Of a stretch of 23,650 bases of DNA, positions 267 through 16,600 are shown piece after piece. The DNA is taken from NCBI GenBank assembly GCA_964580875.1, contig CAZOMG010000017.1:64001-87650 (forward strand), given 5' to 3'. The position numbers and the translations under genes were made by a program. The notes under the pieces were generated by a model that had not been told where the DNA came from, made no database searches, and saw nothing but the letters and a program-made list of their open reading frames with translations. The stretch comes from an uncultured bacterium (GTDB lineage: Bacteria > Muiribacteriota > Ozemobacteria > Ozemobacterales > Ozemobacteraceae). Each line of letters opens with the position of its first letter. The stretch's first letter is position 1.

Positions 267-2732
267 CTAGCGGTCGGTGGCAGCTTTTTTTAATGTGGCC
301 TCTGCTTTGCCGTCGATAGATCTGATATGCAGGTCGTGTTGCGGAAACGGAATTTCAATACTGTTCTCACGGAACAGCCTTTCGATTTCGTAATTGATTT
401 CGTTTTTGACTTTCAGGCGAACATCAATGTCGGCAACCCAGGCACGCAGTTCAAAATCAAGTGAGCTGCTGCCAAAATTCATAAAATACACAGCTGGTTC
501 AGGAAATTTCATGACGAAAGGGTTTTCTTGAGCGATTCTCAGTAGTATCTGGGTAACCTTTTGCACATCAGATCCGTAGGCAACCCCAATCTGTATAATG
601 AGCCTGGTCTGGCGGTCAGAGAGAGTCCAGTTGATGACGGTGCTCGAAACCAGATCGCTGTTGGGCACAATCATTTCTGAGCGGTCAAAGGTTTCGACGA
701 CCGTTGCCCGCAGACCCAGATTTTTTATGGTTCCCCATTCGCCTTTGATCTGCACGATATCGCCGACTTTAATCGAGCGCTCAAAAAGCATGATGATGCC
801 GCTGGCGAAGTTATTAACGATATTCTGCAGGCCGAAGCCGATACCGATGCCCAGCGCCCCGACGATTACGGTCAGGTTCTGAAGGCCGATGCCAATGGTC
901 GAAAGCCCGGTGGTAACCGCTAGAACTATGAATGCGTAATGAATAAGGCGATTGATCGAAATACCGACCCCACGCTCAACTTTGCGCCTTGGGTAAACTT
1001 CTTCTTCGAGAAGCCGCTGCAGCAGCCATGAGATGGTCAACGATGCGTAGACAATGACGATTGCCCAGATCAACATGCCGAGTGAAAGCCGGTAGCCCTC
1101 GAGTGAGATGCCAAAAGCGAGCAGATTCTCGGCGGCCAGCCAGATACTGTCGAAAAAGCCCCAGATTGACAGCATCGCGGCCAAAGCAAAAAAGACGACG
1201 ACCGTATCGATGATGACGCTGGTTCGCTTGATGAACAAATGGTAATGCCGGTTGATCAAGTCGTATTTGCGCACGAAACTGTTGTCGAACAGGGCATCAA
1301 CAATGCCTCTGAGCACCAGATTGATCATCCAGGCCACGACCCCGATAAATACAGTTTTAATAGTTACGTCGAGCAGGTGGTTGGAAAAAGCCACGTAACC
1401 GGCAGCCTGCGACAGAAACACCATTGCCAGCGAAGCGCCACCCGTTTTAACCCCGGCGACGAAGGTCATTGATCTGCCTTCTGCCTGGTTGACCCTGGCA
1501 CGCCAGAAACAGAGCATGGCCCCCGCCAGGCCGACGGCCGCCGTAAAAACCCGCATGGCCGGAGCCGGCAGTGCAATGAAAGTAAACAACTGAATGGTCA
1601 GATATAGCGTGACAATGAAGTAGAGAAGGCGCCGCCGCCAGGTCAGGCTGATCAGCCCACCGATCAGCCGTGCTGAAGATATTGAGATCAGGCCGGCAAA
1701 CAGCAGCTGAAAAAGCTTCGGAACGGATTCAAAGAGCGGCATCGGCACCAGCAGGCCAAGCAGAAAACTTGCTGACCATGGCCGGGCAACGATAAAACCG
1801 AGTTTGAATTTATCAAGATCGCGGTCTTTCTGACTGCGCAGAAACCAGGCGGTTCCGGCAATGAAAAAAATCTGCAAAAACAGCACCCAGCCAAAAGTTT
1901 GAAAGAATTTGCGGTCAGGCAGCTCAAAACTGGCGATGCCCAGCCAGAATTCTTCCCATAGGGCTTTGTCGAATTGCATGACAAAGGTTGGGGTGAACAT
2001 GGCCGGCCGGGATTTTCGAAAAAGATCCTTGCGCATCTCACTCATCAACCGGTCAATATCGCTCAACTGCTTTTGCGTTTCGCGCTGAAGTTCGATGACC
2101 TGCTGCTGAAAATTTACCAGCGGCGCTTCGATACCTTCAAGCTTGCCCCGGGCGACGGCGATGATTTCACTGGCATTAGTTACAACGTTGTGCAGCGATG
2201 AACCGGTTTCGGCGGGCAGCGCATTTTTCTGGTTCTGCCAGACTTTTTCGTTTTCAGCCCATTTCTGCTTGAGGGTTTCGCTTTTAACGAGTCTTTCTGA
2301 GATGTAGCGTGCGTGGCGGCCGATGGCATCGATCAGGGCGCGAATTTCGCTGCGCAGCCCGGAAATTTTTTCGAAGCCGTAACTTCCGGACTCCCTGACT
2401 TCGACAAACTGCTGCTGCTGATCATGGAGTTTTTCTTTGTGAATTTTGTGCTCGGCGAGCAGTTTGCTGACGTCGGTTAATTCGGTAATAGTTACGTAAA
2501 GGGCGTCAACTTCGTCTTTCAGCGCTTCAGCCTTTGGCAATACCTCAGCCATCGAATCATTGGCGTTGTCAGGGGTGGTAGAGGCATTGATCGCGGGCAT
2601 CTGCAAGGGCAATGGCCCGATAAACTGGCTGAGATCGATCATCTGAGCCGTTGCGGGCTGACACGCAAAGAAAGCGTGCAAAATCAGCAAAATCAGGCAA
2701 AATTTTGCCAGAAACAAATATTGGCGCGGCAT
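267..2732 (-). CDS. MscS-family mechanosensitive ion channel with large N-terminal periplasmic coiled-coil domain (MscK/YbiO-like), 821 aa
   Basis: ATG at 2730-2732 with an AGGAGA Shine-Dalgarno 6 nt upstream. N-terminal signal peptide, then a long coiled-coil region (LKDEVDALY, QQQQFVEV...). About 10 TM helices follow, then a canonical MscS pore/beta domain (GIGFGLQNIVNNFASGIIMLFERSIKVGDIVQIKGEWGTIKNLGLRATVVETFDRSEMIVPNS). Lies 59 bp downstream of the Ehr-like operon on the same strand. Confidence 0.85.
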   Translation of the reverse strand: MPRQYLFLAKFCLILLILHAFFACQPATAQMIDLSQFIGPLPLQMPAINASTTPDNANDSMAEVLPKAEALKDEVDALYVTITELTDVSKLLAEHKIHKEKLHDQQQQFVEVRESGSYGFEKISGLRSEIRALIDAIGRHARYISERLVKSETLKQKWAENEKVWQNQKNALPAETGSSLHNVVTNASEIIAVARGKLEGIEAPLVNFQQQVIELQRETQKQLSDIDRLMSEMRKDLFRKSRPAMFTPTFVMQFDKALWEEFWLGIASFELPDRKFFQTFGWVLFLQIFFIAGTAWFLRSQKDRDLDKFKLGFIVARPWSASFLLGLLVPMPLFESVPKLFQLLFAGLISISSARLIGGLISLTWRRRLLYFIVTLYLTIQLFTFIALPAPAMRVFTAAVGLAGAMLCFWRARVNQAEGRSMTFVAGVKTGGASLAMVFLSQAAGYVAFSNHLLDVTIKTVFIGVVAWMINLVLRGIVDALFDNSFVRKYDLINRHYHLFIKRTSVIIDTVVVFFALAAMLSIWGFFDSIWLAAENLLAFGISLEGYRLSLGMLIWAIVIVYASLTISWLLQRLLEEEVYPRRKVERGVGISINRLIHYAFIVLAVTTGLSTIGIGLQNLTVIVGALGIGIGFGLQNIVNNFASGIIMLFERSIKVGDIVQIKGEWGTIKNLGLRATVVETFDRSEMIVPNSDLVSSTVINWTLSDRQTRLIIQIGVAYGSDVQKVTQILLRIAQENPFVMKFPEPAVYFMNFGSSSLDFELRAWVADIDVRLKVKNEINYEIERLFRENSIEIPFPQHDLHIRSIDGKAEATLKKAATDR

Positions 2733-2791: not shown

Positions 2792-3550
2792 TTAAATGCG
2801 GCCCATAAACCTGAGAATGCCTTCGAGAATGGTCCAGGGGTTCGGCGGGCAACCGGGAATATAAAGGTCGACGGGTATCAGGTCGCCGATTCCGTCGTTG
2901 ACTTCACTGTTGCCCCTGAATAACCCGCCCGAAATAGCGCAGGCGCCTGTGGCAATCACCACTGAGGGTGAAGGCAGGGCGGCATAAGTTTTTTGCAGCG
3001 CCAGTTTCATGTTCTGGGAAACTGGCCCGGTAACCAGCAGTCCATCGGCGTGCCGTGGCGAGGCGACGAACTGAATTCCGAACCTGGCCAGATCAAAAGT
3101 TGGGGTGCCAAGAACGTTGCAGTCCGCTTCGCAGGCGTTGCAACCACCGGCACTCACCTGGCGGAGCTTGAGGGAACGCCCGAAAATACGCTTGATTTCA
3201 GCGCCCATGGCTTCGGCGGTTTTAAATTCGCTGCTGCTGATCAGCAGATCGTTTTTGTGGCGTGCCGCCAGAGAAAATTCGCGGCTGAAACTGATCAGCT
3301 TGGCCGGGCAGGCTGGCTCACAGGCGCGACAGAAAATACAGCGCCCCATGTCGATTACCGGGCGGTGGTCTGAACCACAACTGACAGCACCGGTGGGGCA
3401 GACATTAATACAGGCTGTGCAGTCATTCTGGCATGTGCCGGTCGCAATCATGGGGCGGCCAGTATAGCGTGGCGCCATTTCCGGTATTTTATCGGGAAAC
3501 GGGAAGGTACGATACTGTTGGTGCAAGCGGGCTTTAAGAATCTGCAGCAT
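2792..3550 (-). CDS. Fusion protein: 2x[4Fe-4S] ferredoxin domain (HyfH/HycF/NuoI-like) + group-4 hydrogenase small subunit / NuoB-like domain (HyfI/HycG-like), 252 aa
   Basis: ATG at 3548-3550 with a GAGGT Shine-Dalgarno 6 nt upstream. The N-terminal half has two CxxCxxCxxxCP motifs (CQNDCTACINVCP, CIFCRACEPACP). The C-terminal half matches NuoB/HycG (ASPRHADGLLVTGPVSQNMKLALQKTY...VIATGACAISGG...DLYIPGCPP) and has CNAC (CxxC) in place of the complex-I CC motif, as in group-4 hydrogenase small subunits. All four proximal-cluster Cys ligands are present. Confidence 0.85.
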   Translation of the reverse strand: MLQILKARLHQQYRTFPFPDKIPEMAPRYTGRPMIATGTCQNDCTACINVCPTGAVSCGSDHRPVIDMGRCIFCRACEPACPAKLISFSREFSLAARHKNDLLISSSEFKTAEAMGAEIKRIFGRSLKLRQVSAGGCNACEADCNVLGTPTFDLARFGIQFVASPRHADGLLVTGPVSQNMKLALQKTYAALPSPSVVIATGACAISGGLFRGNSEVNDGIGDLIPVDLYIPGCPPNPWTILEGILRFMGRI

Positions 3551-3558
3551 ATTTTACC

Positions 3559-5058
3559 TCACAGGTCGTGGCCGCAATAAGAGAGGTTGAAGCTCTTGTT
3601 GCACAGCGGAAAGTCAGATATTTCCTGGTTGCGCAGCGCCAGAGCCAGGCCAAACCAGTTATGAAACGAGGGGTCGGTAATTTTGTAGGTCTGAAGCTTG
3701 CCTTGCGCGTCGGTAACCGCCACATGGCAGATTTCGCCGCGCCAGCCTTCGGTGAGGCTGACACTGATTGACGAGGCCGCCATTTTCAGGGGTGTGGTGT
3801 TACAACCGGCCGGTTCAGCTGATATATCGGCAAGCATGGCTCTGATGAGCCGCAGTGATTCTTTAATTTCAAGCCAGCGAATGGTGGCGCGGGCGTTCAC
3901 ATCGCCGCACCGGCCGATTTCGATGAGCGGAACAGCGGGTGGGTAATCTTCATAGGCTCCAAATGGATGAGAAAGACGAACATCGGTCAGAAGTGCGCAG
4001 GCACGGGCCGCTGGCCCTACCAGGCCGATGGTCACGGCGTCTTCCTGACTGACATGCCCGGTTTCATCGAAACGCGATACTACCGAAGGGGTGTCCCAGA
4101 TCAGGTCGATGGCCGAAATCAGGTCAGCCTCAATCAGTGTCAGTTTATCGAGAATCTGCTGTTTAAGGGTTGCGTCGATATGGTAACCGACGCCGCCGGT
4201 CTTGACCAGACCTCTGCCGAAGCGGTTGCCGCAGATAAGGCCAGTCGTGTTGAGCACGTCGCCCCTGATGCGGCCGCAATAAGATGAAGTCGGCAGAAAG
4301 CCGACATCGCCGGCCATGGCGCCGAGGTCGCCGGTATGGTTGGCGATGCGCTCAAGTTCGAGAGCTATACTTCTGATCAGACTGGCATTTTTGTCTGGTT
4401 TAAGGCCGGCCAGGGCCTCGTAATTCATGGCAAAAGCGGTTGCGTGGCCGATACTCGTATCACCGGCCGTGGCTTCGAGCAGGCGGATAATTTTTTGGGG
4501 AGTTGCGGTGGGAATTGCTTTTTCTATGCCGCGATGCTGGTAGCCAAGCTCAATTTCGAGATGAAAAACCTTTTCGCCGTGGCATTGAAATCTGAAGTGG
4601 CCGGGTTCGATAATGCCGGCATGAACAGGCCCAACCGCAACTTCGTGAACTTCTTCGCCATTGACTTCGAAGTAGTCGGTGACGCCTGGCGAAATCTCGC
4701 GGTTCTGACCGGCCCGGGGCTGAAACCGTATCGGCTTGAGCCAGGGGTGGCCAAGCATTTCGATGCCGTGTATTTCCGCGATTTCGCGTTCAAACCAGTG
4801 GGCCTGCGGAACCTGGGGTGTGAGTGCCTTGAATTTTCGACCACATTGGCAGGCAAACAGTTCTAACTCTGTTGTTTCGTCATCGGCAACAATTGCAATC
4901 ATGGTTGGCTGCTCACCTGGCAGCACGAACAGCGAGGCCAGGCGCACGCCTTTCTGGGTCAGGGTAATCAGATGCTGCCGAAAGCCTTCGATTTCCATGA
5001 CCGGCAGTCGATCTAATGTTGCGCAGGTGCCGTTTTTAATAGTCAGCTGGTTTTTCAC
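3559..5058 (-). CDS. NuoC-NuoD fusion / HycE-HyfG-like large subunit of an energy-converting-hydrogenase-related (Ehr) complex; lacks the cysteines at the N-terminal [NiFe] motif position and the canonical C-terminal CxxC; 499 aa
   Basis: GTG start at 5056-5058, overlapping the upstream stop (GTGA), with a GGAGGTG Shine-Dalgarno 7 nt upstream. N-terminal 30-kDa-subunit-like domain, then GPVHAGIIEPGHFRF and GYQHRGIEK, the hallmark motifs of NuoD and group-4 large subunits. Where RxCGxCxxxH is expected the protein reads EATAGDTSIGHATAF (nt about 4432-4476), with no Cys. The C-terminus reads DFPLCNKSFNLSYCGHDL, a C-x8-C spacing in place of DPCxxC. Confidence 0.85.
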   Translation of the reverse strand: MKNQLTIKNGTCATLDRLPVMEIEGFRQHLITLTQKGVRLASLFVLPGEQPTMIAIVADDETTELELFACQCGRKFKALTPQVPQAHWFEREIAEIHGIEMLGHPWLKPIRFQPRAGQNREISPGVTDYFEVNGEEVHEVAVGPVHAGIIEPGHFRFQCHGEKVFHLEIELGYQHRGIEKAIPTATPQKIIRLLEATAGDTSIGHATAFAMNYEALAGLKPDKNASLIRSIALELERIANHTGDLGAMAGDVGFLPTSSYCGRIRGDVLNTTGLICGNRFGRGLVKTGGVGYHIDATLKQQILDKLTLIEADLISAIDLIWDTPSVVSRFDETGHVSQEDAVTIGLVGPAARACALLTDVRLSHPFGAYEDYPPAVPLIEIGRCGDVNARATIRWLEIKESLRLIRAMLADISAEPAGCNTTPLKMAASSISVSLTEGWRGEICHVAVTDAQGKLQTYKITDPSFHNWFGLALALRNQEISDFPLCNKSFNLSYCGHDL

Positions 5059-6617
5059 AGTATTGCACCTCCGAGAAGGGTGGCTGCCCCGTTGATGGCG
5101 GTTCTGAAAGAATCAGGCAGATAGAAGCCGAGCACTACAGCCGCCGACAGAAAAAAGACCGGCGTGATCAGCTGTAACACAGTTTCGCTAACCTCGTGTT
5201 CTTCGGCCGGAGCATGGTGTCTGCCATGTTTTCGGGTGTGTTTATGTGGTGAATCATGGTCGTCACGGTGATGATCACCACTGGATAAGGGCTTTTCGGA
5301 TTGAACGCCCTGGGTCATCTGCATAAAAATGGTCAGCATGCCGATGAAGACGATCAAGAGAAACAGCAGGTAGAAAGCGGCGATATACCAGCTGCGGGTG
5401 ACCAGCGCAGCACGCAGAATGGTGAATTCGCTGATGAAAGTTCCGAAGGGTGGTGTGCCGGTGATGGCCAGAAACCCTGCCAGCCACAACATGCCTGTGT
5501 AAGGCAGGCTTTTCAGCAACCCGGTCACCTTTTCTACCTTTTTGGTGTCGAATGCCGAAAGAATATTGCCGGCGAGCAGAAAGAGCGAAGATTTGACCAG
5601 TGAGTGGCAGATGGCGTGCAGCATGGCGCCGGCGATTGCCGCGCCACCCAGACCGATACCGGTGGCCAGGATTCCCATGTGCTCGACGCTTGAATATGCG
5701 AGCATCCTTTTATAATCGGGCTGATGTAGAATAAAAATGCCCGAAACGCCCATTGAGACGATGCCGGCAATGACAAGAAGCTCAGATGCAAAAGCGGCGG
5801 TGGCGGGCAGGGCGACGCAGACCTGATAAATGCGAAGAATACCGAGAAAGGCACAGTTCAGAAGGCCCCCTGAAAGCATAGCCGATACGGGTGACGGCGC
5901 TTCGCTGTGGGCATCTGGAAGCCAGGTATGCATTGGCGCAAGACCCATTTTGGTGCCGTAACCCACCAGAACAAAGATAAAGGCGACCTTCAGCCACCTG
6001 ACCTTGAGATAGCCGGCGTAAAGAACCAGCCCGGCGGGGGTAAAGAGCTCAACATGATGCGTAGCGGTCATCGCCAGAAAGAAAACACCCATCAGCGCCA
6101 GCGCGATGCCAACTGAACAGATAATCATGTATTTCCAGGCGGCTTCGAGCGAGCGTCGGCTGCGGTGATAATATATCAGCGGTGTGCTTGCCAGGGTCGT
6201 GGCTTCGATGCCGATCCATTGCAGGCCGAAGTGCATACTGAGAATCGCCAGACTCATGGCCGCGAGAAATAACTGCATACAGGCGGCATAGATGGCGTTA
6301 CGGTTTTTGAGAAACTGCCAGTTGGCAAGATCAGAACCGTCTTCTTGCGGGTGTTTGTCGAGGTAGACCATTGAATAGATGGCTGAACCGGCGAACAGCA
6401 GACTGGTCAGCGACAGAAAAATTCGGGTAAGGTGGTCGACGCCGAGCCAGACGCCGTTCAATTCTCCGGCGTCGCCTTTGCAGAGGCGAATGACCAGAAA
6501 AAGATGCACAAAGGCGACTATTACAAGGATATTCTTGCGCAGGCGCTCTGAATCAATAAATAACGAAATAATGCCGGTAATTACCGGAAGAATGATCAAT
6601 GCCCAGGCGGTATTCAT
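5055..6617 (-). CDS. Antiporter-like membrane subunit, HyfF/NuoN/NuoM (MrpD) family, with a His-rich insertion loop, 520 aa
   Basis: ATG at 6615-6617 overlaps the upstream stop (ATGA). The protein is polytopic, with the conserved TWLPDAHSEAPSPVSAML motif typical of proton-pumping NuoL/M/N-type subunits. A His-rich segment (SSGDHHRDDHDSPHKHTRKHGRHHAPAEEHE, residues about 445-475, nt about 5193-5285) precedes the last TM helix. Confidence 0.8.
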   Translation of the reverse strand: MNTAWALIILPVITGIISLFIDSERLRKNILVIVAFVHLFLVIRLCKGDAGELNGVWLGVDHLTRIFLSLTSLLFAGSAIYSMVYLDKHPQEDGSDLANWQFLKNRNAIYAACMQLFLAAMSLAILSMHFGLQWIGIEATTLASTPLIYYHRSRRSLEAAWKYMIICSVGIALALMGVFFLAMTATHHVELFTPAGLVLYAGYLKVRWLKVAFIFVLVGYGTKMGLAPMHTWLPDAHSEAPSPVSAMLSGGLLNCAFLGILRIYQVCVALPATAAFASELLVIAGIVSMGVSGIFILHQPDYKRMLAYSSVEHMGILATGIGLGGAAIAGAMLHAICHSLVKSSLFLLAGNILSAFDTKKVEKVTGLLKSLPYTGMLWLAGFLAITGTPPFGTFISEFTILRAALVTRSWYIAAFYLLFLLIVFIGMLTIFMQMTQGVQSEKPLSSGDHHRDDHDSPHKHTRKHGRHHAPAEEHEVSETVLQLITPVFFLSAAVVLGFYLPDSFRTAINGAATLLGGAIL

Positions 6618-7288
6618 TCGTCTGCCTCCTCAACCACCGTAGCGGCAATTTCAAGGTCTGAAAGTTCGTTGAAGCGGTCGGCATCAAGGTGATCAAATTC
6701 ACGGTCAATATGGAAAAGCATGATGCCCATGAGGAAAATTCCGACAAAAACGTCGAGCAGAATGCCCAGTTCAACCATCGTTGAAAATTCGCTGCCAAGA
6801 CTCAACCCGGTGGTGAACACCCCGTTTTCGAGCACCAGAAAGCCGAGGGTCTGGGTAAGCGCCTTGCGACGGGTCATCAGAAGCAACAACCCTGAAAAAA
6901 CCAGAAAGAAGCCGCAGGTAAGTGCCACCGGAGATGCGATCGGGTCGGTTTCCAGCAGGGTGCTGACGATCCAGCCAGAAACGGCCAGAAGAAAGACACC
7001 GCACAGCATCGAGGCGCCGAAGCTGATAAAGGGTTCAATTTCGCGTTTGGTACCTGAGACAATCATGGCTTTATTGAGCAGCCATGGCAAAAGCCCGCTT
7101 TTCAAAACGATACTGGTAATCGAGAGGATGACCAGACCTGGGGTGAGATGCCCTGGCCCGACTGCGAACAACTGCAGAAGGCCAAGCAGCAGACCCTGAA
7201 AAGCCACCATGCGGATTGCGACACGCAGGCGACTCGAACCGAGCAGTAACAGGCATGATAATGTAAGTAGTGTAGCGATGCTGTTCAT
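6614..7288 (-). CDS. HyfE-like small membrane subunit (NuoK-related) of hydrogenase-4-type complexes
   Basis: Hydrophobic protein of about 224 aa. LGFLVLENGVFTTGLSL matches the conserved FGYxLMENG region of E. coli HyfE. The ORF track starts at a TTG at 7309; an ATG at 7286-7288 (MNSIATLL), 7 nt after the HyfC-like stop, is the more likely start. The stop overlaps the next start (ATGA). Confidence 0.65.
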   Translation of the reverse strand: MNSIATLLTLSCLLLLGSSRLRVAIRMVAFQGLLLGLLQLFAVGPGHLTPGLVILSITSIVLKSGLLPWLLNKAMIVSGTKREIEPFISFGASMLCGVFLLAVSGWIVSTLLETDPIASPVALTCGFFLVFSGLLLLMTRRKALTQTLGFLVLENGVFTTGLSLGSEFSTMVELGILLDVFVGIFLMGIMLFHIDREFDHLDADRFNELSDLEIAATVVEEADE

Positions 7289-7295
7289 GATATTT

Positions 7296-8216
7296 TCAGT
7301 TCCCTGCAATCTTGAGAATCAGAGCAATAATGGCGAGAGCGCCAGAACCGACAATGAATTTCGGAATATGAATCAGCCGCATTCTGGCGATCGTTGATTC
7401 AATCATGCCGATCAAAACGGCAACCAGAAACATGCCTGCTGCGAAAACCGGAAAATGCAGCAGGGTTGGCATGGCCGGAGTGCTGATCACCAGCCCGACC
7501 AGAAGACCCGAAAACAGCCAGAGTTTATAGGCCGCGGCGTATTCGATCATCGCCAGATCCTTGCTGCTGTAATCGAGAATCATCACCTCGTGAATCATCG
7601 TCAGTTCAAGATGGGTGTTGGGGTCATCGACCGGAATTCTCGCATTTTCGGTGAGCAGTACGATCATCCAGCTCACGGCGATCAGCAGCATAATGGCAGG
7701 GTTCTGTTGCCAGTGCCCGGGCGACAGTTCGGCAAAAATGCCCGAGATACTGAGACTGCCGGTTTCGTATATCAGCACGAGCAGCCCGCAGAATAGCGCC
7801 GGCTCAGCAAGGGCGCTATAGAGCACTTCACGGCTGGCGCCCATTCCCTCAAAGGCTGAACCGCGGTCAAGAGCCGCCGTTACCATAAAAAACCTCGCAA
7901 TGCCCAACAGGTAGGCCATAAAGATGATGTCACCCGAAAAAGTGCAGCAGGCCGGGTTGAAGAAGCCGGGCATCAGCAGGCCGGCACCGATGGTGGCGAA
8001 GAAGATCGCGAAGGGTGCGAGTCGGGTGAGCAGCGTTGCGGTGCGGCTATAGGTCGCTGATTTGTGCATCAGTTTAAACAGGTCAAAGTAGAGCTGGGTA
8101 ACCGGGGGGCCCTTTTTGCCGCCGAAGAAGGCTTTGACCTTGTTGATAATACCCGGAAACAAAGGGGCAAGAAACAGCGACAATATAAACCAGAGGATCG
8201 ATGTGTTATTGATCAT
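7296..8216 (-). CDS. HyfC/HycD/NuoH-like membrane subunit (respiratory-chain NADH dehydrogenase subunit 1 family), 306 aa
   Basis: ATG at 8214-8216 overlaps the upstream stop (ATGA). Eight-TM protein with the NuoH-like N-terminus (PLFPGIINKVKAFFGGKKGPP...) and the conserved TMIHEVMILDYS and ELSPGH-type motifs. Confidence 0.8.
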   Translation of the reverse strand: MINNTSILWFILSLFLAPLFPGIINKVKAFFGGKKGPPVTQLYFDLFKLMHKSATYSRTATLLTRLAPFAIFFATIGAGLLMPGFFNPACCTFSGDIIFMAYLLGIARFFMVTAALDRGSAFEGMGASREVLYSALAEPALFCGLLVLIYETGSLSISGIFAELSPGHWQQNPAIMLLIAVSWMIVLLTENARIPVDDPNTHLELTMIHEVMILDYSSKDLAMIEYAAAYKLWLFSGLLVGLVISTPAMPTLLHFPVFAAGMFLVAVLIGMIESTIARMRLIHIPKFIVGSGALAIIALILKIAGN

Positions 8217-10201
8217 ATTACAGCTACTTTCCAGAGCAGCAGGGCGAGAAGTGCAATGGCCAGATAGCCGACATAAAGGTGCAGATGGCCATGTTGCAGT
8301 GCTCTGAGTGGAACCACCAGCCGGTCAATCAGGGCGAAAAGCGGCAGAAAAAGGTAGCGCAACAGGGAGTCGGGCGCTTCAGTTCTAAAACTGGCGTGTT
8401 GCGGGAACAGGCCGCTGACCTTTTCGCCATGGCGAAAGGGTCTGACGATACTCGAAAAAACTTCAGAAACAGGCTGAGAGAAAGATGACGAAGTATATTG
8501 AATACGTGCATTGGGGGCGGCAAAACCGCAGTCCCAGGTGGGGCGATCCTGGACTTCGCCTTTGGAAAAGCGGCTTTTCTGGATGCGCCAGCCCAGCATG
8601 ACCAGTATGATCAATGCCAGTGAAAAAGCCGATATGGCACGCAAAGGCACGGCCGACAGCAGAAGATCATCGGCCGAAAACAGCATGCCGGCGGGGGCGC
8701 CGATCTCGGCAACAACGCGTGAAACCGGCAGCAGTAACCAGGGCGACAGCAAAGCCACTGAAAAAATAGCCAGAACGAGAATTGCCATGGGGAGCCTTAC
8801 CAGCGGTTTTATTTCCATGGGTGGTGGTTGTTTTTCTTCTCGCGGTGCGCCGAGAAAAACCAGCCCGAAGGTTCGTGAAAAACAGGCGGCGGCCAGGCCG
8901 CCGATGAGACCAAGACCGGCCAGCACAGTAGCAGAGAGCAGCAGGGCTGATGAGGTTCCGAGGCGGGTCGCTTTAAGCCCGGCCAGAAAAATGAGAAATT
9001 CACTGACAAAATTGTTGAAGGGCGGGAGACCGGCAATGGCGGCCGAACCTATTCCAAAGGCAAGGGCCGTGAACGGCATCGACTTCGCGAGCCCGCCCAT
9101 TGACTCCAGTTTTCTCGTTCCGGTGCCGAAATAGACGGCCCCCGAACCAAGAAACAGCAGGCCCTTGCAGATTGAATGATTGAGAATGTGCATCAAGGCA
9201 CCGGCTAAAGCTGCAAAGGCCATGGCCGGCAGCTTCCAGATGGTGGCAAGCACTGCACAACCGAGAGCCATGAGAATAATACCGGCGTTTTCCATGCTGC
9301 TGTAGGCGATGACTTTTTTAAGGTCATGCTGCACCAGCGCGGTGATCAGGGCAAAAACCCCGGTTAACAGGCCGCCGAACAGCAGGGTCCAGCCCCAGGA
9401 TGCCTGTTGAACCGGCAGAAACATCATGACCCTCACCAGCCCATAAAAGCCCATTTTGCTCATCGCACCCGACAGAACTGCCGAAACATGAGCGTCGGCA
9501 AAGGTATATGAATCAGGAAGCCATACATGTAACGGAATCAGCCCGACCTTAACGCCAAACCCGAACAGGGCGAGAAAAAAAATCGTCGAATAAGAACCGT
9601 AGGTGGCTGGAGCATTCAGAAACTGGTCGAATTCAAACGAGCCGGCCGAAGCGCTCAGCAGACCGAAGAGAATGAACAGGCCGGCTGTGCCGATGTGACT
9701 GGCCACCATAAAACGCCAACCGGCGTTGCGAACCGTGCCGATTTCGCTGCGGTGTGTAATGAGAAAAAAAGCTGCAACCGACATGATTTCCCATTCCATG
9801 AGAAAGAGGACAGCGTTGGCGGAAGCGAGCAACATCAACATCGAGGCAATCAGCAGGTTATAAAAAAACCAGTAACTGCCCAGGGCATGCTTTTCGTCAT
9901 AATGGGCGGTAGCGGCGGCATAAATTGCTGCGAGTGAGCCGAGCAGAATAACAGGCAGTGCGAAAAATGCCGATACCTGGTCAAGGCAAAGGGTAGCCGG
10001 GCCGAGGGGCAGGTTGAGCAGATAGCGACCGGTATCAGAAGCAAAAAACAAGCTTTGACAGACAGTCACCAGGGCCATTGCACAACCGGCAAGACACGAA
10101 AGGGCGCCGATCGCTGAAGAAAGGTTGCGCATGCGGCCAAAAAGTCCGGCGAAGCTTCCGCCGACTATAATAATCAAAATTGCGGTTAAAAAGAGCTGCA
10201 T
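8213..10201 (-). CDS. HyfB/HycC/NuoL-like antiporter-type membrane subunit, 662 aa; first gene of the operon
   Basis: ATG at 10199-10201 with an AGAGG Shine-Dalgarno about 9 nt upstream. Large polytopic protein with the HVWLPDSY and AGLPPFNNFVSEF motifs characteristic of the NuoL/MrpA/HyfB family. Preceded by a 420 bp intergenic region. Confidence 0.8.
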   Translation of the reverse strand: MQLFLTAILIIIVGGSFAGLFGRMRNLSSAIGALSCLAGCAMALVTVCQSLFFASDTGRYLLNLPLGPATLCLDQVSAFFALPVILLGSLAAIYAAATAHYDEKHALGSYWFFYNLLIASMLMLLASANAVLFLMEWEIMSVAAFFLITHRSEIGTVRNAGWRFMVASHIGTAGLFILFGLLSASAGSFEFDQFLNAPATYGSYSTIFFLALFGFGVKVGLIPLHVWLPDSYTFADAHVSAVLSGAMSKMGFYGLVRVMMFLPVQQASWGWTLLFGGLLTGVFALITALVQHDLKKVIAYSSMENAGIILMALGCAVLATIWKLPAMAFAALAGALMHILNHSICKGLLFLGSGAVYFGTGTRKLESMGGLAKSMPFTALAFGIGSAAIAGLPPFNNFVSEFLIFLAGLKATRLGTSSALLLSATVLAGLGLIGGLAAACFSRTFGLVFLGAPREEKQPPPMEIKPLVRLPMAILVLAIFSVALLSPWLLLPVSRVVAEIGAPAGMLFSADDLLLSAVPLRAISAFSLALIILVMLGWRIQKSRFSKGEVQDRPTWDCGFAAPNARIQYTSSSFSQPVSEVFSSIVRPFRHGEKVSGLFPQHASFRTEAPDSLLRYLFLPLFALIDRLVVPLRALQHGHLHLYVGYLAIALLALLLWKVAVI

Positions 10202-10622
10202 ATATAACTACCTCTGGGTGCGTATCAGTTGCATGTGCTTTTTTACGCCTACTGCTCACCTTTTGCAAGTCTTTTAAAAAAAATCTCGCAGAATACAGAG
10301 AGATTTTGCATTTGATCTGGCGCATACGGTGGGCCTGGGGTCAGCATTTTTGCCCCCCTCGGCAATCATTGTACGCATGTACCCGTAAAATTAAAAAAAA
10401 GTTAGCTTACTCTTGGAAATTACGAAAATTTCGGTTAGAATGAAAAGCACGGAGATTCCTGCACCTCGCTGAAAATATTGAAATTGTTTCGCAGAGCATG
10501 GTTACGGTTCTGATTCGGTTGTCGCGATGAGTGGTTTCAATATAATCTGATCTGCAGGTTGACCCGGTGGTGTTTTGGGTTCTTTTGTTGCTGCTTTGAC
10601 TTCTTTTAACGCGTAACGATCA
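10202..10622. promoter_or_regulatory. Divergent intergenic/promoter region between the Ehr-like operon (minus) and the lipase-PhaR-like bicistron (plus)
   Basis: 421 bp non-coding stretch, relatively AT-rich, with two A8 tracts (10276-10283 and 10393-10400). A near-palindrome GTACGCATGTAC lies at about 10369-10380. I could not pick out a convincing sigma70 or sigma54 hexamer pair by eye. Note that with the later GTG start of the lipase gene (about 10704) the non-coding region extends to about 500 bp. Confidence 0.4.
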
Positions 10623-12020
10623 ATGATTATCCTTGTCAGAGCACAGCAGAGACTGCATGAAGAGTATAGTGTTACCTCTCGTTTGAAAGGTGATAGAGTA
10701 GTGATTAGAAATTGCCTGCCATTGCTTCGTATCCGAATTGCTTTATCTAAAGTCGCCTGCCTCGGGCTGCTTTTGTTGGTTTTGTGCTGGCCTGCAACCG
10801 CCGGCGCGGTTCTCAATGTCGTCAGTGAATTGTCGGGTCGTGACTGCTCCCCCTGGGAGCGCACCGAACTCATTGCAGACGACGACGCGCATTTTATTGC
10901 TGAGCCTTTTCATCTGAAGAGTCGTCATACTCACAGCATTGTTTTAAAAGCCTTCGGCACCGCCAAACCACATTCGCGCAATTTTCTGCTGCATTTCGCC
11001 CCCCGCTGGGATCGCCCCCGCCAGAAAGTGCCGGTTTTGCTGGTGCATGGCGCCGGTGATAACGCCTGCCGGGGTTTTTGCCACCCATATTCCTTCGACC
11101 TCCCCGAATCCGGAACCATTGACAAACCAGGTATGATGCAGCATCTGGTCCGTGAGGGTTTTTCGGTGTTTGGTATAACCTTTTCACATCCGCATGGCGA
11201 TAACTTTTTGCAGGCGCAGCAGGTTGCCAATGCTATCGCCCGCATTCGCGAGCTGACCGGTTCCGAAAAGGTCGATATTGTCTGTCACAGCAAAGGTGCC
11301 ATGTCGGTGCGAATTTATGCTTCCGATCTCGGCAGTGAATACCCTGAATATGCCTGGTTGACTCCCTTTCGCCACGACATCAGAAAAATCGTTTTTGTCG
11401 CATCGCCTCTCAAGGGCATTGATACTGCCTTCAGATATTACATGTATAATTTTACTGTCATGCAGCAAAAACTTGCCGCGCCGCTTGGCCCGCGTTCAAT
11501 GGCCTGGCAGGGCATGTATGTCGACAATGAAAGCCACAACCGGCTTTTTCCGGGGCAGTTTCAGATGTTGCATAACTGGGCCAACGATGGCATTGACCTG
11601 AGTGGTCAAAGTCTTACTGCAGATGCAAATATTACGTGTAAAGCGCTTTATAACGGTGGCGTCAGTGCGATGCTTGTTTCAGATGGCATTGATCGTGCTA
11701 TACAGGAATCCGGAAATGTGATAGACTCTCTCTGCAAAAAGGGAGTCGACCCCTCGATCACCTGTCATATTCTCGCCGGTACCGACCAGAAAATCGACAC
11801 TCTGAAGCTTTTCTGGCTTGAGCTTCCGGTCGGCGAATTTGCTGACAGCAGCGACGGGGTCTTGTTTCTCAAGAGTGCGACCTATAAGAAGGGTTTGACA
11901 GCCCGCGGTGCCAAGGTTGCCAGTGTCAAGACACTGAACATGCACCACGTTGGCGTGACCGTTCGGCCAGAAGCGCTCAATCACATTTCCGAGGTTTTAC
12001 GTGAAAGAAATTCTGATTAA
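10623..12020 (+). CDS. Secreted lipase/esterase-like alpha/beta hydrolase (family I-type lipase motifs), 465 aa by ORF track; probable true start at GTG about 10704
   Basis: A hydrophobic signal-peptide-like segment (ACLGLLLLVLCWPATAGA) follows an internal GTG at 10704, which has a strong AAAGGTGA Shine-Dalgarno 7 nt upstream. Oxyanion-type VLLVHGAGD and nucleophile-elbow VCHSKGAMS (x-H-S-x-G) motifs resemble Bacillus/Pseudomonas true-lipase boxes. The stop at 12018-12020 overlaps the next gene's start. Confidence 0.7.
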   Translation: MIILVRAQQRLHEEYSVTSRLKGDRVVIRNCLPLLRIRIALSKVACLGLLLLVLCWPATAGAVLNVVSELSGRDCSPWERTELIADDDAHFIAEPFHLKSRHTHSIVLKAFGTAKPHSRNFLLHFAPRWDRPRQKVPVLLVHGAGDNACRGFCHPYSFDLPESGTIDKPGMMQHLVREGFSVFGITFSHPHGDNFLQAQQVANAIARIRELTGSEKVDIVCHSKGAMSVRIYASDLGSEYPEYAWLTPFRHDIRKIVFVASPLKGIDTAFRYYMYNFTVMQQKLAAPLGPRSMAWQGMYVDNESHNRLFPGQFQMLHNWANDGIDLSGQSLTADANITCKALYNGGVSAMLVSDGIDRAIQESGNVIDSLCKKGVDPSITCHILAGTDQKIDTLKLFWLELPVGEFADSSDGVLFLKSATYKKGLTARGAKVASVKTLNMHHVGVTVRPEALNHISEVLRERNSD

Positions 12021-12576
12021 AAAATACGACAACCGTCGTTTGTATTGCGTTGAAGAAGCCAGATATGTTTCCCTCACCGAGATTCGCGATTTTTTGCAAC
12101 GCGGCGACAAGGTCAAGGTTGTCGAAAAAACCACCGGCAAAGATATCACCAAATACATTCTGATGCAGGTGATGCTCGAAGACCGCTATGAACTGGTGCC
12201 GACCTATTTTTACCAGATGATGCTGCAATCACAGCCCGAAGCACTCGATTATTTTTTCCAGCAGTTCTTCCCCTGGATGATGAGCATGTACAAAAACTAC
12301 CAGGAAGGCAAATTCGCGTTGCCGAGCATGCCCGGCATGCCAGCCATGCCCAGCACGCCGTTTCAGAATCCCTGGATGCAGATGCCCAACCCTTTTCAGG
12401 GCATTAACCCTTTTATGCAGCAGGCGGCGACCCCGCAGTCAACCGCGACTGCTGCCCCTCCGCCCCCGGCCGGCAAAAAAGCGGGCAAACCTGAGGCTCC
12501 CGCCTCCGGTGATGATAAAATGGCCGAGATTCTCAAGCGCCTGCGCGAACTCGAAGAAAAGCTGCACTCAGAGTGA
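12001..12576 (+). CDS. PhaR-family DNA-binding protein (PHA/PHB accumulation regulator N-terminal domain) with Met/Pro/Gln-rich low-complexity C-terminal tail, 191 aa
   Basis: GTG start at 12001 with a GAGG Shine-Dalgarno 7 nt upstream; the start lies 20 nt inside the end of the lipase gene. The N-terminus (ILIKKYDNRRLYCVEEARYVSLTEIRDFLQRGDKVKVVEKTTGKDITKYILMQVMLE) closely matches the conserved PhaR N-terminus (IKKYPNRRLYDT..S.Y.TL.DV....VKVVDAKSG.DLTRSILLQIILE). The C-terminus (MPGMPAMPSTPFQNPWMQMPNPFQGINPFMQQ...) is low-complexity and ends in an amphipathic helix. Confidence 0.75.
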   Translation: MKEILIKKYDNRRLYCVEEARYVSLTEIRDFLQRGDKVKVVEKTTGKDITKYILMQVMLEDRYELVPTYFYQMMLQSQPEALDYFFQQFFPWMMSMYKNYQEGKFALPSMPGMPAMPSTPFQNPWMQMPNPFQGINPFMQQAATPQSTATAAPPPPAGKKAGKPEAPASGDDKMAEILKRLRELEEKLHSE

Positions 12577-13510: not shown

Positions 13511-13635
13511 GCGGTATCGATTCATCGATCACGATGGCGACGGGGCACTGTCATTTCCCCTGAATTACGCCCGCCACCATGAAGTATTTGCATTTTTATA
13601 AAAATAAGACTGTCATAAGAACACGGAGATTCATC

Positions 13636-16600
13636 ATGTTGAACAATATTGGCACTGGTAAGCAAGGCTTTGTTTTGGTTTTGCTCGTGGCTTTGCTGGT
13701 TTTTTGCCAGGCCAATCCGGCGACGGCTTTGCAGCAATTACGATACCCCACTTTCGCCACCCCCTGGACAGAAACAGGCAAAGTTTTAGCTGCTGAGCCT
13801 GTTCTGTTTTCTAACACGACCCCTAATACTTCGGGGAACGGTCGCCGGGGTCTCTATGAGCGTCCCAATCAGTCAGGCACCAAGCAGGGCGATGGTTACA
13901 TGCAACTGGCATTTCCGGCCGTCGCTAAAAATGCTTCAACCACAGTATTGGTGCTTCTGTCTGTCAGAGAACCTACTCTTGCAAAACAGGCCAATAAGTG
14001 GTCGATGACCACAAAGGGTACCATCAGAAAATCCGATGAAACGGTAATTGCTGACCTTTTTAGCCGCACTTTGATTGAAGGTCAACAAACAGATACCTGG
14101 CAAGATCTGACCTGGAGCGGCACTCTGGCGCCTGCCGGTGTGAACGAACGCCTTTTCCGAATCTACTGGTTCATAGAGATCGTTGCCAACAACAAAGATC
14201 AGGTTGGAGCCGACTTCAGTGACGTTTACCTGCACATGAGCCCTTGCGGCCTGGCGGCCGCCGAAGAAGCGGTTGATGGTGGCGGAGTCACCCTCACCTG
14301 GAACCCAAGCGCACCGGGTACTGGCCAGCCGGGTTTTGATCCTGCCACCGCTCCATATCGTATTTATCGCCGCACCGACCCTCTGGCAGAATGGCAGTTG
14401 ATCGCCCAGTGGCCAACCGCGCCATGGGTGGCACCGGCGGCCACCACCTATACAGATACCACCTCACCTGCTTCAGAGACCGTATATTACTGCATAACCG
14501 ATTTCGACACCAATCTTTATGAATCGCCAAAGTCGCCCGAAGCTGTTTTTAAACCGGCCAGGCTGGTAATCGATGAGGTGACATCTGGTTATGAATCGGT
14601 CACCATCGGTCAGACGGCCGAAGTTTATGTTAAGCTGCACAACTCTGGCAACAGCCCCATCGATCTTTTTGCCCTCGAACTTGATTTTGAAGGCCCGGCT
14701 TCAGCGGCCTACTCTGTCGTGCCGCCGACCCTGTCGCCGGCTGCGCCTTTGACGCTTGCCGGGGGAGCGAGTGCCACTCTGACTTTTCAGGTGACCATAC
14801 TCGATAACCTCACTGCCCCGGGCTTCGAAACGATAAATGCTTCGGGGGCAGCACGTGCCACCGTCCGCAACCTTACCGTCACCGATACCCAGGCCGACGA
14901 CGACAAGAAAGAACGCTGGACGATCTGCTGGCCAGCTTCCCTTGAAATTACCGAAATAACTGTACCGCCCCGGGTTTTTCGTGGCCAGGTCGGAGCCACC
15001 ATAGACATTACTACCCTGAATAACGGTGGTGAGAACGCGGCGGGTGAATGGCTCAATACCGCGTTTAAGTTTGAGCCGGGCGGCGCCGTCGATTTCACCA
15101 ACCTCAGACTTGACCCGTTGAATACTTTGCCGGTCGAGATTAGCCAGAATAATACCATTACCAGGCGTTATCTGGTCGATGTTTCGGCGAATGCCCAGAT
15201 TGGGCCTTGCAATATTTTTGGCCGCATCTATTACCAGGATGTCAACCTGCGGGGCGACAGCGATTTCTGGACTGACTTCGATGATTCACCGGTCGCTTCC
15301 TGGTCGGTTCTGGCCGGTATCATGCGCACCTTCAGAACGTCATCGTATCTGACAGCCACCAGTACCTTCAATGCCGGCGCCAACAACGTGTTTGCCAAAG
15401 CTGAGAACCTGCAGCCTCTGACCAGTCATCGCTTCAGGTGGTTTGACCCTGATGACCATGAGGTTCTGACCAGCGGCATGGTGCAGACCAACGATCTGGG
15501 GGTCATGACCTATGAATTCCCGCTGACTGGTGCAGCCCATGGCCGCTGGCGGGTGGTGGCAACCAAGCCGCTGCTCGACACGCCACTTGCCGAAGCTTAT
15601 TTCTGGGTCCAGGACCCGGCTGCTATTTCAATCAGTCTGGGCATTCCGCCAATAATTGTCGAAAATCGCTACTTCAACGCTACCATGACGATGACCAACA
15701 TCGGTGAAGCGGCAGTTGCCCAGGCCTATGCCGGTTCGATTCTAAGAGTTAACAGTGTGGGCAACGCCAGTCTGGGTTCATTGCCGACTCCGACCTACCG
15801 TACCATCAGTGGCTTTGGAACTGGTATGTTCAGCTGGGGTTTTACTGCCACCACCATGGGTTCCTACTCATTGGAGGTAAAGGGCTACGGTTACGACGAC
15901 AACGACGGACGCTTTCTTGAAACGGCGAGTGTAACCAGCAATGTGGCCACGATCACCACGGCGCCAGTTCTCTCGGTAACCGGGGTGAGCGAGACCTATG
16001 ACAATGTATCACCAGGGCAGGCAAACCTGACCGTCAATATGGATATCGCCAACACTGGCGGCTCGCCGGTGTATGTTAATGCTGCGTCTCTGACCTTTGA
16101 TTCTGGCGCAGTTGCCCAGAGTTACACCCAGGTTTACGCTTCGCCGCCGGTATTTCCGTTCGTTCTCGATGGTAACTCAACCGCAAGAATCGTTTTTACG
16201 GTGGCGGTTGATGCGAGTTCACTGCCGGGTGCTGCGCTTATCAGGGGTTCTTTTACCGCATCCGAGGTTTACGATCTGGCGTGGGGCTACGGAGTGCCGC
16301 ACGGAGGTGGCACCGGGAACTGGACGGTTGCCGACGTTTCTTACGGTGAATGCAGTGCCAACCAGGATTTTCTGCCGCAACAGTATACGTTTAACCAGAA
16401 TCAGAGAATTTATGTCAGATTTCATAATGTGCCCGACAGTAAAAAAAATAATTATGCTGTTCTTTTTTTCGATGATGAAACCCTCGGAATCATCGGTGAT
16501 GAGCGGGAGTCGGTCTATGGTATTCCTGCCAATACTGAAAAGACGGTGACCACCAATGTTCAGCTGCCTGGCGACGCAGCAGTCAGAAAGTGGCGGGTTG

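Follow-up and report, generated by a model that had tools for sequence, protein, structure and literature searches.

The 252-amino-acid (aa) open reading frame (ORF) at positions 2792..3550, on the minus strand of a 23,650-nucleotide (nt) stretch of contig CAZOMG010000017.1 (assembly GCA_964580875.1, from an uncultured bacterium of the Ozemobacteraceae; hereafter the window), carries a NuoI/HycF-like 2x[4Fe-4S] ferredoxin half and a NuoB/HycG-like half in one polypeptide. We consider it very probable that this protein is the EhrS-type small subunit of Ehr (energy-converting or Ech-hydrogenase-related), a six-subunit membrane complex descended from the group 4 [NiFe]-hydrogenases, and that its fusion origin and electron path are those proposed below. 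The ORF starts with ATG, is free of stop codons, including across positions 3150-3250, and is the last of six contiguous minus-strand genes (2792-10201) that overlap or abut one another (Table 1). The original prediction, made from the DNA letters, had already read the ORF, with no strand given, as a continuous single-polypeptide fusion, and this reading is borne out by the Pfam, NCBIfam and Protein Data Bank (PDB) matches.

A domain scan for Fer4 and Oxidored_q6 found both domains. Pfam matched Oxidored_q6 (PF01058; NuoB, 20 kDa) at aa 137-247 over profile positions 1-127 of 128 (E=5e-27; 94.5 bits against a cut-off of 27) and, in the N-terminal half, the dicluster family Fer4_7 at aa 43-84 (E=2e-7). 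The NCBIfam matches divided in the same manner. At aa 136-250 the NuoB family PRK06411 was matched above its cut-off (7e-34), and NF005012 scored 116.8 against a cut-off of 116 for the NuoB half, while aa 1-113 matched the HycF family PRK12387 (2e-17), NuoI (TIGR01971; 7e-14, aa 8-108) and HyfH (1e-13). As the window protein has no counterpart of the last third of HycF, its scores against the NuoI and HycF profiles stayed under the full-length cut-offs. PDB sequence searches retrieved MbhJ (1e-32), HycG (5e-30) and many NuoB/NDUFS7 chains with the C-terminal half, and MbhN (2e-10; 6cfw_N, aa 8-104), HycF (3e-10; 7z0s_F, aa 25-106), MbsN and NuoI with the N-terminal half. The ferredoxin and NuoB parts are separate chains in every matched structure, and the earlier statement that they are separate subunits in E. 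coli Hyc and Hyf, MBH and complex I agrees with both the NCBIfam and the PDB searches. The C-terminal half thus belongs to the NuoB/Oxidored_q6 family by its full-length domain above cut-off and its four proximal-cluster cysteines, and the N-terminal half to the NuoI/HycF/MbhN family by its eight cysteine ligands and its similarity to the HycF, NuoI and HyfH profiles from residue 1-8.

The structural comparison gave the same picture. The AlphaFold model, built on an alignment, is a single compact fold (pLDDT 86.8, pTM 0.86). In Foldseek comparisons, which were made with single chains only, its C-terminal half superposed on MbhJ (6cfw_J; TM 0.85, root-mean-square deviation 1.7 A) and also matched HycG, NDH-K and NuoB; no solved chain spanned both halves (query-normalised TM <=0.52). 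The linker between the domains is, in its second part, a homologue of the helix with which MbhJ and HycG begin, with phmmer alignments beginning at aa 105 of the query for MbhJ (its residue 3) and at aa 98 for HycG (its residue 9). Distant relatives have an insert of ~40 aa at the junction.

The protein has all twelve cysteines predicted to bind the distal, medial and proximal [4Fe-4S] clusters, and a single polypeptide thereby holds the putative ligands of the whole distal-medial-proximal wire, homologous to the chain of MBH, E. coli formate hydrogenlyase (FHL) and complex I. Hyc/Hyf, MBH, MBS, NDH-1 and complex I divide this wire between a NuoI-like and a NuoB-like subunit. By homology to MbsN (PMC8165549), the distal cluster would be bound by C40, C44, C47 and C81 and the medial cluster by C51, C71, C74 and C77, that is, by the last cysteine of motif 1 and the first three of motif 2 (PMC8165549). 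The predicted proximal ligands, C137, C140, C204 and C234, are of the CxxC hydrogenase type. Two CxxCxxCxxxCP motifs had been predicted ahead of a complete NuoB-like domain; this description is right for the domain and for motif 2 (C71-xx-C74-xx-C77-xxx-C81-P) but not for motif 1, C40-QND-C44-TA-C47-INV-C51-P, which has the form Cx3Cx2Cx3CP, one residue over the canonical spacing, as in most homologues. In an alignment of 30 close homologues (A1; 57-92% identity, nearly all 249-264 aa) the medial and proximal cysteine sets are invariant, whereas a subgroup has lost the distal set. Clustering at 50% identity gave 42 complete fused representatives, of which 22 have all three ligand sets and 40 keep the medial one; the window protein belongs to the majority, three-cluster kind. 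Proximal NuoB cysteines are also lost in a few distant fused proteins (P0188, P0189 and L129).

The assignment to Ehr depends on the large subunit encoded next to the fused gene. When aligned to HycE, its counterparts of CGIC and PCYSC read AGDT and LSYCG, with A, T, S and G at the four Ni-Fe cysteine columns, and neither the L1 (RxCGxCxxxH) nor the L2 motif (DPCxxCxxR/H) is found in it, although both are found in the control loci L094, L096, L116 and L133. Since none of the four Ni-Fe ligand positions is a cysteine, the window complex fits the definition of Ehr: a large subunit devoid of Ni-Fe ligands, NuoH-, HyfE- and antiporter-like genes in the operon, and a small-subunit gene that also encodes a NuoI homologue. 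The predicted Ehr type of the complex is therefore upheld. Membership of Ehr would further imply that the complex lacks hydrogenase activity and couples a different redox reaction to ion translocation. In large subunits beside fused small subunits, the first Ni-Fe motif is replaced by a near-invariant AGDT[ST][IV]GH and the C-terminal one by a near-invariant LCNKSFNLSYCG[HFY]DL, and the strong conservation of these replacement motifs in EhrL suggests a functional site.

Table 1. Features of the fused small-subunit gene and of the operon that it terminates (window positions)
Feature	Position	Strand	Evidence
ehrA-type gene, HyfB/NuoL-like antiporter-like subunit, 662 aa, first gene	8213..10201	-	Hydrogenase 4 subunit B, 8e-146
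ehrB-type gene, NuoH/HycD-like membrane anchor, 306 aa	7296..8216	-	Pfam NADHdh, 8e-30
ehrC-type gene, HyfE-like membrane subunit, 231 aa	6614..7309	-	NCBIfam PRK11492 (hydrogenase 4 membrane subunit), 1e-20
ehrD-type gene, HyfF/NuoM-like antiporter-like membrane subunit, 520 aa	5055..6617	-	Proton_antipo_M, 1e-51; Hydrogenase 4 subunit F, 2e-102
ehrL-type gene, large subunit, NuoC-like + NuoD/HycE-like fusion, 499 aa	3559..5058	-	Pfam Complex1_30kDa + Complex1_49kDa
GAGG Shine-Dalgarno sequence, 6 nt 5' of the ATG, sharing bases with the large-subunit gene's TGA stop	3557..3560	-	Sequence reading
ehrS-type gene, NuoI/HycF-like 2x[4Fe-4S] half + NuoB/HycG-like half, 252 aa	2792..3550	-	ORF list, Pfam, NCBIfam, PDB matches, AlphaFold
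N-terminal NuoI/HycF/MbhN-like domain, aa 1-105	3236..3550	-	NCBIfam and PDB matches
Eight predicted cysteine ligands of the ferredoxin half, aa 40-82	3305..3433	-	Cysteine positions; homology to MbsN ligands
Junction and linker, aa 86-125	3176..3295	-	phmmer alignments; L102, G124 and R125 conserved
C-terminal NuoB/HycG/MbhJ-like domain, aa 126-252 and stop	2792..3175	-	Oxidored_q6, invariant cysteines, Foldseek

The closest known systems are the Ehr complexes themselves. Geobacter sulfurreducens GSU0739-0745 (EhrA-1 to EhrL and EhrS) and the Ehr of Margulisbacteria have the same subunit set and order, A-B-C-D-L-S, as the window, and known Ehr share with it a large subunit that is a NuoC-NuoD fusion without Ni-Fe cysteines and a small-subunit gene that also encodes a NuoI homologue. 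Two Geobacteraceae loci (L020 and L049), at 50-54% identity, have a duplicated A gene and hence seven genes in the order A-A-B-C-D-L-S, as in GSU0739-45. The window differs from known Ehr by lineage only; a His-rich stretch in its HyfF-like subunit may be lineage-specific, and no functional difference is evident. The closest solved relatives of the window protein are MbhN and MbhJ of Pyrococcus furiosus MBH (6CFW) and MbsN and MbsJ of MBS (6U8Y), where a distal-medial-proximal wire is fed by ferredoxin; in MBH and MBS, however, the parts are separate subunits of 13-14-subunit complexes with an Mrp-type module. HycF and HycG of E. coli FHL (PDB 7Z0S) and HyfH and HyfI contain homologous domains, hycF lies directly upstream of hycG after hycE, and HycG shares the CxxC-type proximal cluster motif. 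FHL differs in having two polypeptides, a C-terminal tail of ~65 extra aa in HycF, a C-terminal extension in HycG, a HycE that binds Ni-Fe, and a docked formate dehydrogenase. In complex I, NuoI (Nqo9/TYKY) and NuoB (Nqo6/PSST) are homologous in fold and form the corresponding chain of three clusters (N6a-N6b-N2), but they are separate subunits, NuoB has a tandem-cysteine motif, the acceptor is a quinone and the N-module supplies the electrons. Hyq (HyqBCEFGI) of diazotrophic Alphaproteobacteria is a six-subunit module whose HyqG is, as in the window, a NuoC-NuoD fusion without Ni-Fe cysteines. HyqI has the four cysteines for an N2-type cluster, but it is a NuoB-only protein of ~170-180 aa without the ferredoxin half, so the 252-aa window subunit is not of the Hyq type.

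We then asked how widespread the fusion is. A word-index search gave at least 8000 matches, of which the best 120 are nearly all ~250 aa long and mostly have both Fer4 and Oxidored_q6 Pfam matches. An exhaustive search of 1.84 billion cluster representatives retrieved 308 clusters at E<=1e-30, with both halves present in 90 of the best 150. Scanning one genome per GTDB species, we found full-length fused relatives in at least 589 species, and the best 80 match the query from residue 1-5 to at least residue 240. These 80 include Planctomycetota, Verrucomicrobiota, Acidobacteriota (Geothrix), Riflebacteria, Cloacimonadota, Omnitrophota, Chlamydiota, Kuenenia and others, as well as the Desulfobacterota Geobacter, Geomonas, Desulfovibrio and Electrothrix. 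Carriers in culture include Geobacter sulfurreducens, Geothrix paludis and Desulforhabdus amnigena. The best 80 fused loci (L001-L080), which are the closest relatives of the window ORF and come from many phyla, served as our sample of genome loci; in essentially every one with enough flank the gene order is A(-A)-B-C-D-L-S. Homologues are annotated as 'Ni,Fe-hydrogenase III small subunit/ferredoxin' (JGI), 'HyfI' or 'NuoB'. Among named relatives the closest are metagenome-assembled genomes (MAGs) of Candidatus Riflebacteria, at 71-73% identity, together with others at 76-80% whose label, 'Erysipelotrichia bacterium', may be a binning or taxonomy error. The source of the window is probably a Riflebacteria-like organism.

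This distribution also bears on the possibility that a frameshift or a lost stop codon, in sequencing or assembly, joined separate hycF- and hycG-type genes. In E. coli-type loci a hycF-type gene indeed stands next to and before a hycG-type gene, and a single-base error could in principle merge them. We nevertheless regard such an artefact as virtually dismissed. Independent assemblies contain the 252-aa ORF in syntenic position (85-92% identity), with an intact copy of 85% identity in each of two Logan assemblies and MAG GCA_964474705.1, besides the full-length fused relatives in the species genomes counted above. The 30 homologues of alignment A1 align unbroken through the linker, with L102, G124, S126 and R130 invariant, and the protein sequence of the linker is conserved in an unbroken frame. 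Furthermore, the HycF-like C-terminal tail is missing rather than read through (profile positions 1-116 of 180). The artefact explanation is refuted by the independent syntenic ORFs, the at least 589 species and the conserved linker taken together.

The fusion had also been suggested as a diagnostic feature of an Ehr subgroup. From the 80 genome loci 75 large subunits adjoining a fused gene were recovered; none has the Ni-Fe cysteines, and within this close clade the suggestion holds. Because a sample of closest relatives is biased for this question, distant fused representatives (36-48% identity, part of them with the 40-aa linker insert) were examined too, and metagenome contigs were then scanned. 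Two metagenome loci, L094 and L096, contain a stop-free ORF with both halves beside a large subunit with RICGVCSVAH and ELCYSCTDR, which align exactly to the Ni-Fe motifs of HycE; L090 is partial. The operons of all three run B-C-D-L-S as in the window, with the four Ni-Fe cysteines kept in the large subunit; the ferredoxin halves of L094 and L090 have the medial-cluster cysteines only. We regard the three as putative genuine hydrogenases whose small subunit is a NuoI-NuoB fusion. Conversely, six loci (L099, L101, L105, L108, L109 and L113) have six-subunit operons with a Ni-Fe-less large subunit and a NuoB-only small subunit of 170-186 aa, with no ferredoxin-like ORF near it, and correspond to the Hyq type. 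In E. coli-type loci (L106, L111, L115 and L116) the large subunit is followed by adjoining, separate HycF-like and HycG-like ORFs. No stand-alone NuoI-like ORF was flagged in the fused-type metagenome loci or seen among the matches in the 80 genome loci. The fusion therefore recurs widely across homologous operons but, beyond the close clade, is not uniquely diagnostic of Ehr, since fused subunits accompany Ni-Fe-competent large subunits in L094 and L096 and Hyq-like complexes are unfused. It is conceivable, if rather doubtful, that the fused subunit marks one large, ancient, six-subunit Hyf-like clade with both Ni-Fe-competent (L094, L096) and Ni-Fe-less members. The repeated losses of the distal cluster, and the occasional ones of the proximal cluster, would in that case record how a hydrogenase turned, step by step, into an enzyme of new chemistry. 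That chemistry might centre on the near-invariant EhrL motifs AGDT[ST][IV]GH and LCNKSFNLSYCGHDL. If this were true, the fused clade would be a graded natural series for working out the function of Ehr.

Three other readings of the domain and of the complex were weighed against that of an EhrS-type subunit. The N-terminal half could be a generic bacterial 2x[4Fe-4S] ferredoxin, recruited independently and not homologous to NuoI or HycF; Pfam gives it only generic Fer4 families (20-32 bits), and the NCBIfam matches to NuoI and HycF lie under the curated full-length cut-offs. Yet the best NCBIfam matches of aa 1-113 are HycF, NuoI, NDH-I and HyfH, and as the HycF and NuoI matches begin at residue 1-8 they include the N-terminal segment devoid of cysteines. 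The PDB matches of this half are likewise MbhN, HycF, MbsN and NuoI, and no separate NuoI-like gene was seen in operons that would otherwise need one. On the HycF/NuoI-specific profile and PDB matches we rejected generic recruitment, which we hold to be very unlikely. A working H2-evolving or H2-oxidising group 4 [NiFe]-hydrogenase, with the ORF as its small subunit, would agree with the names 'hydrogenase' and 'HyfI' given to homologues, with the hydrogenase-type proximal motif and with the Ni-Fe-competent large subunits that adjoin related fused subunits in L094 and L096. The residues at the four Ni-Fe columns and the lack of these cysteines in all 75 close relatives argue otherwise, as does the finding of no hyp maturation gene in the ORFs of the window. 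With the Ni-Fe ligands missing from the window large subunit, this reading was rejected as highly improbable.

A quinone reductase, like complex I or the proposed Hyq, in which the fused subunit feeds a membrane quinone, seems unlikely to us, although a NuoH-like anchor and a NuoD-like fold are present and Hyq has been proposed to be an H2:quinone oxidoreductase. Against it, Ile and Gly align to His38 and Tyr87 of Thermus thermophilus Nqo4 (in a pairwise phmmer alignment that is weak here), residues that we take to be the quinone-liganding ones of complex I. In addition, the tandem-cysteine motif of complex I NuoB is replaced by CxxC, and some Ehr-bearing lineages are reported to be without quinone biosynthesis. 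Some observations also weigh against the Ehr reading with its proposed electron path. The window has no redox partner gene linked to the operon, and none, such as one for a formate dehydrogenase or a NuoEF-like donor, recurs among the 1403 flanking ORFs of the 80 loci, which we clustered. Cluster occupancy is predicted from cysteine conservation alone, and the Cx3C spacing of motif 1 is non-canonical. Finally, the full distal set is missing in 13 of the 42 diverse fused representatives (~1/3), so the electron entry point may differ among lineages.

In the EhrS-type reading that we prefer, the fused order of domains, ferredoxin and then NuoB, is that of the E. coli-type genes hycE-hycF-hycG, and a simple fusion of neighbouring genes, or fission in the opposite direction, is enough to explain the architecture. 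The gene probably arose when two adjoining genes fused end to end and the C-terminal tail of HycF was lost. The exposed distal cluster would be reduced by a soluble donor of low potential, probably ferredoxin as in MBH, MBS and NDH-1. From it electrons would tunnel via the medial cluster to the proximal one and on into a pocket lined by EhrS, an EhrL without Ni-Fe and the NuoH-like anchor. An acceptor would be reduced in this pocket, and the energy released would drive ion translocation by the HyfB-like and HyfF-like subunits. In the solved, unfused complexes the three clusters already lie <12 A apart (PMC8165549), and the fusion, which had been suggested to fix their geometry, is consequently not required for it. 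It would rather serve mainly to ensure 1:1 stoichiometry and co-assembly, with no new geometry, which we find the more economical reading of its role.

The novelty implied for the fusion was not confirmed. A NuoI-NuoB fusion in Ehr small subunits was already stated by Matheus Carnevali (2019; PMC6349859, Supplementary Note 4), and where that article (PMC6349859) treats the fusion it cites Marreiros (2013) for its occurrence in several Ehr groups; the JGI annotations also contain it. Being published and present in hundreds of species, the fusion is known and ordinary. Ehr complexes are widespread in anaerobes, including Geobacter, Desulfovibrio, Planctomycetota, Verrucomicrobiota, Riflebacteria, Kuenenia and others, and the remaining interest lies in the function of Ehr complexes in general, that is, in their donor, acceptor and ion-pumping role, rather than in the fusion itself. 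A three-cluster wire predicted on one 28-kDa polypeptide of a six-subunit complex is a compact target for structure determination, and the family is well suited to the study of substrate change in complex I-like machines.

Within the operon, the HyfF-like subunit contains at aa 445-474 the His-rich stretch SSGDHHRDDHDSPHKHTRKHGRHHAPAEEH, with 9 His in 30 aa, which had no counterpart in the 66 homologues of other genomes and may be metal-binding or a lineage-specific loop. Scans for promoter and terminator consensus sequences at the operon ends gave chance-level matches only. Directly 5' of the operon and on the same strand, 30 of the 80 loci have a gene of ~230 aa with HTH_17 and PTS_EIIA_2 domains, which is likely a dedicated operon regulator; this gene and its antisense shadow ORF were the only recurrent neighbours. 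The gene is absent from the window, where positions 10202-10620 upstream of the operon are non-coding. Farther upstream and divergent from the operon (10623-12576, plus strand) lie genes for a lipase-like alpha/beta hydrolase and a PhaR-type polyhydroxybutyrate (PHB) regulator. Downstream, 59 nt from the operon and on the same strand, is a gene for an MscS/MscK-type mechanosensitive channel of 821 aa (267-2732, minus strand). The same neighbourhood of PhaR-like, lipase-like, six complex and MscS-type channel genes is found in MAG GCA_964474705.1 (L161) and the two Logan assemblies. Still farther from the operon, a 2317-aa ORF on the plus strand (13579-20532), rich in Thr, Ala, Gly and Ser and with an N-terminal hydrophobic segment, may encode a giant surface or adhesin-like protein.

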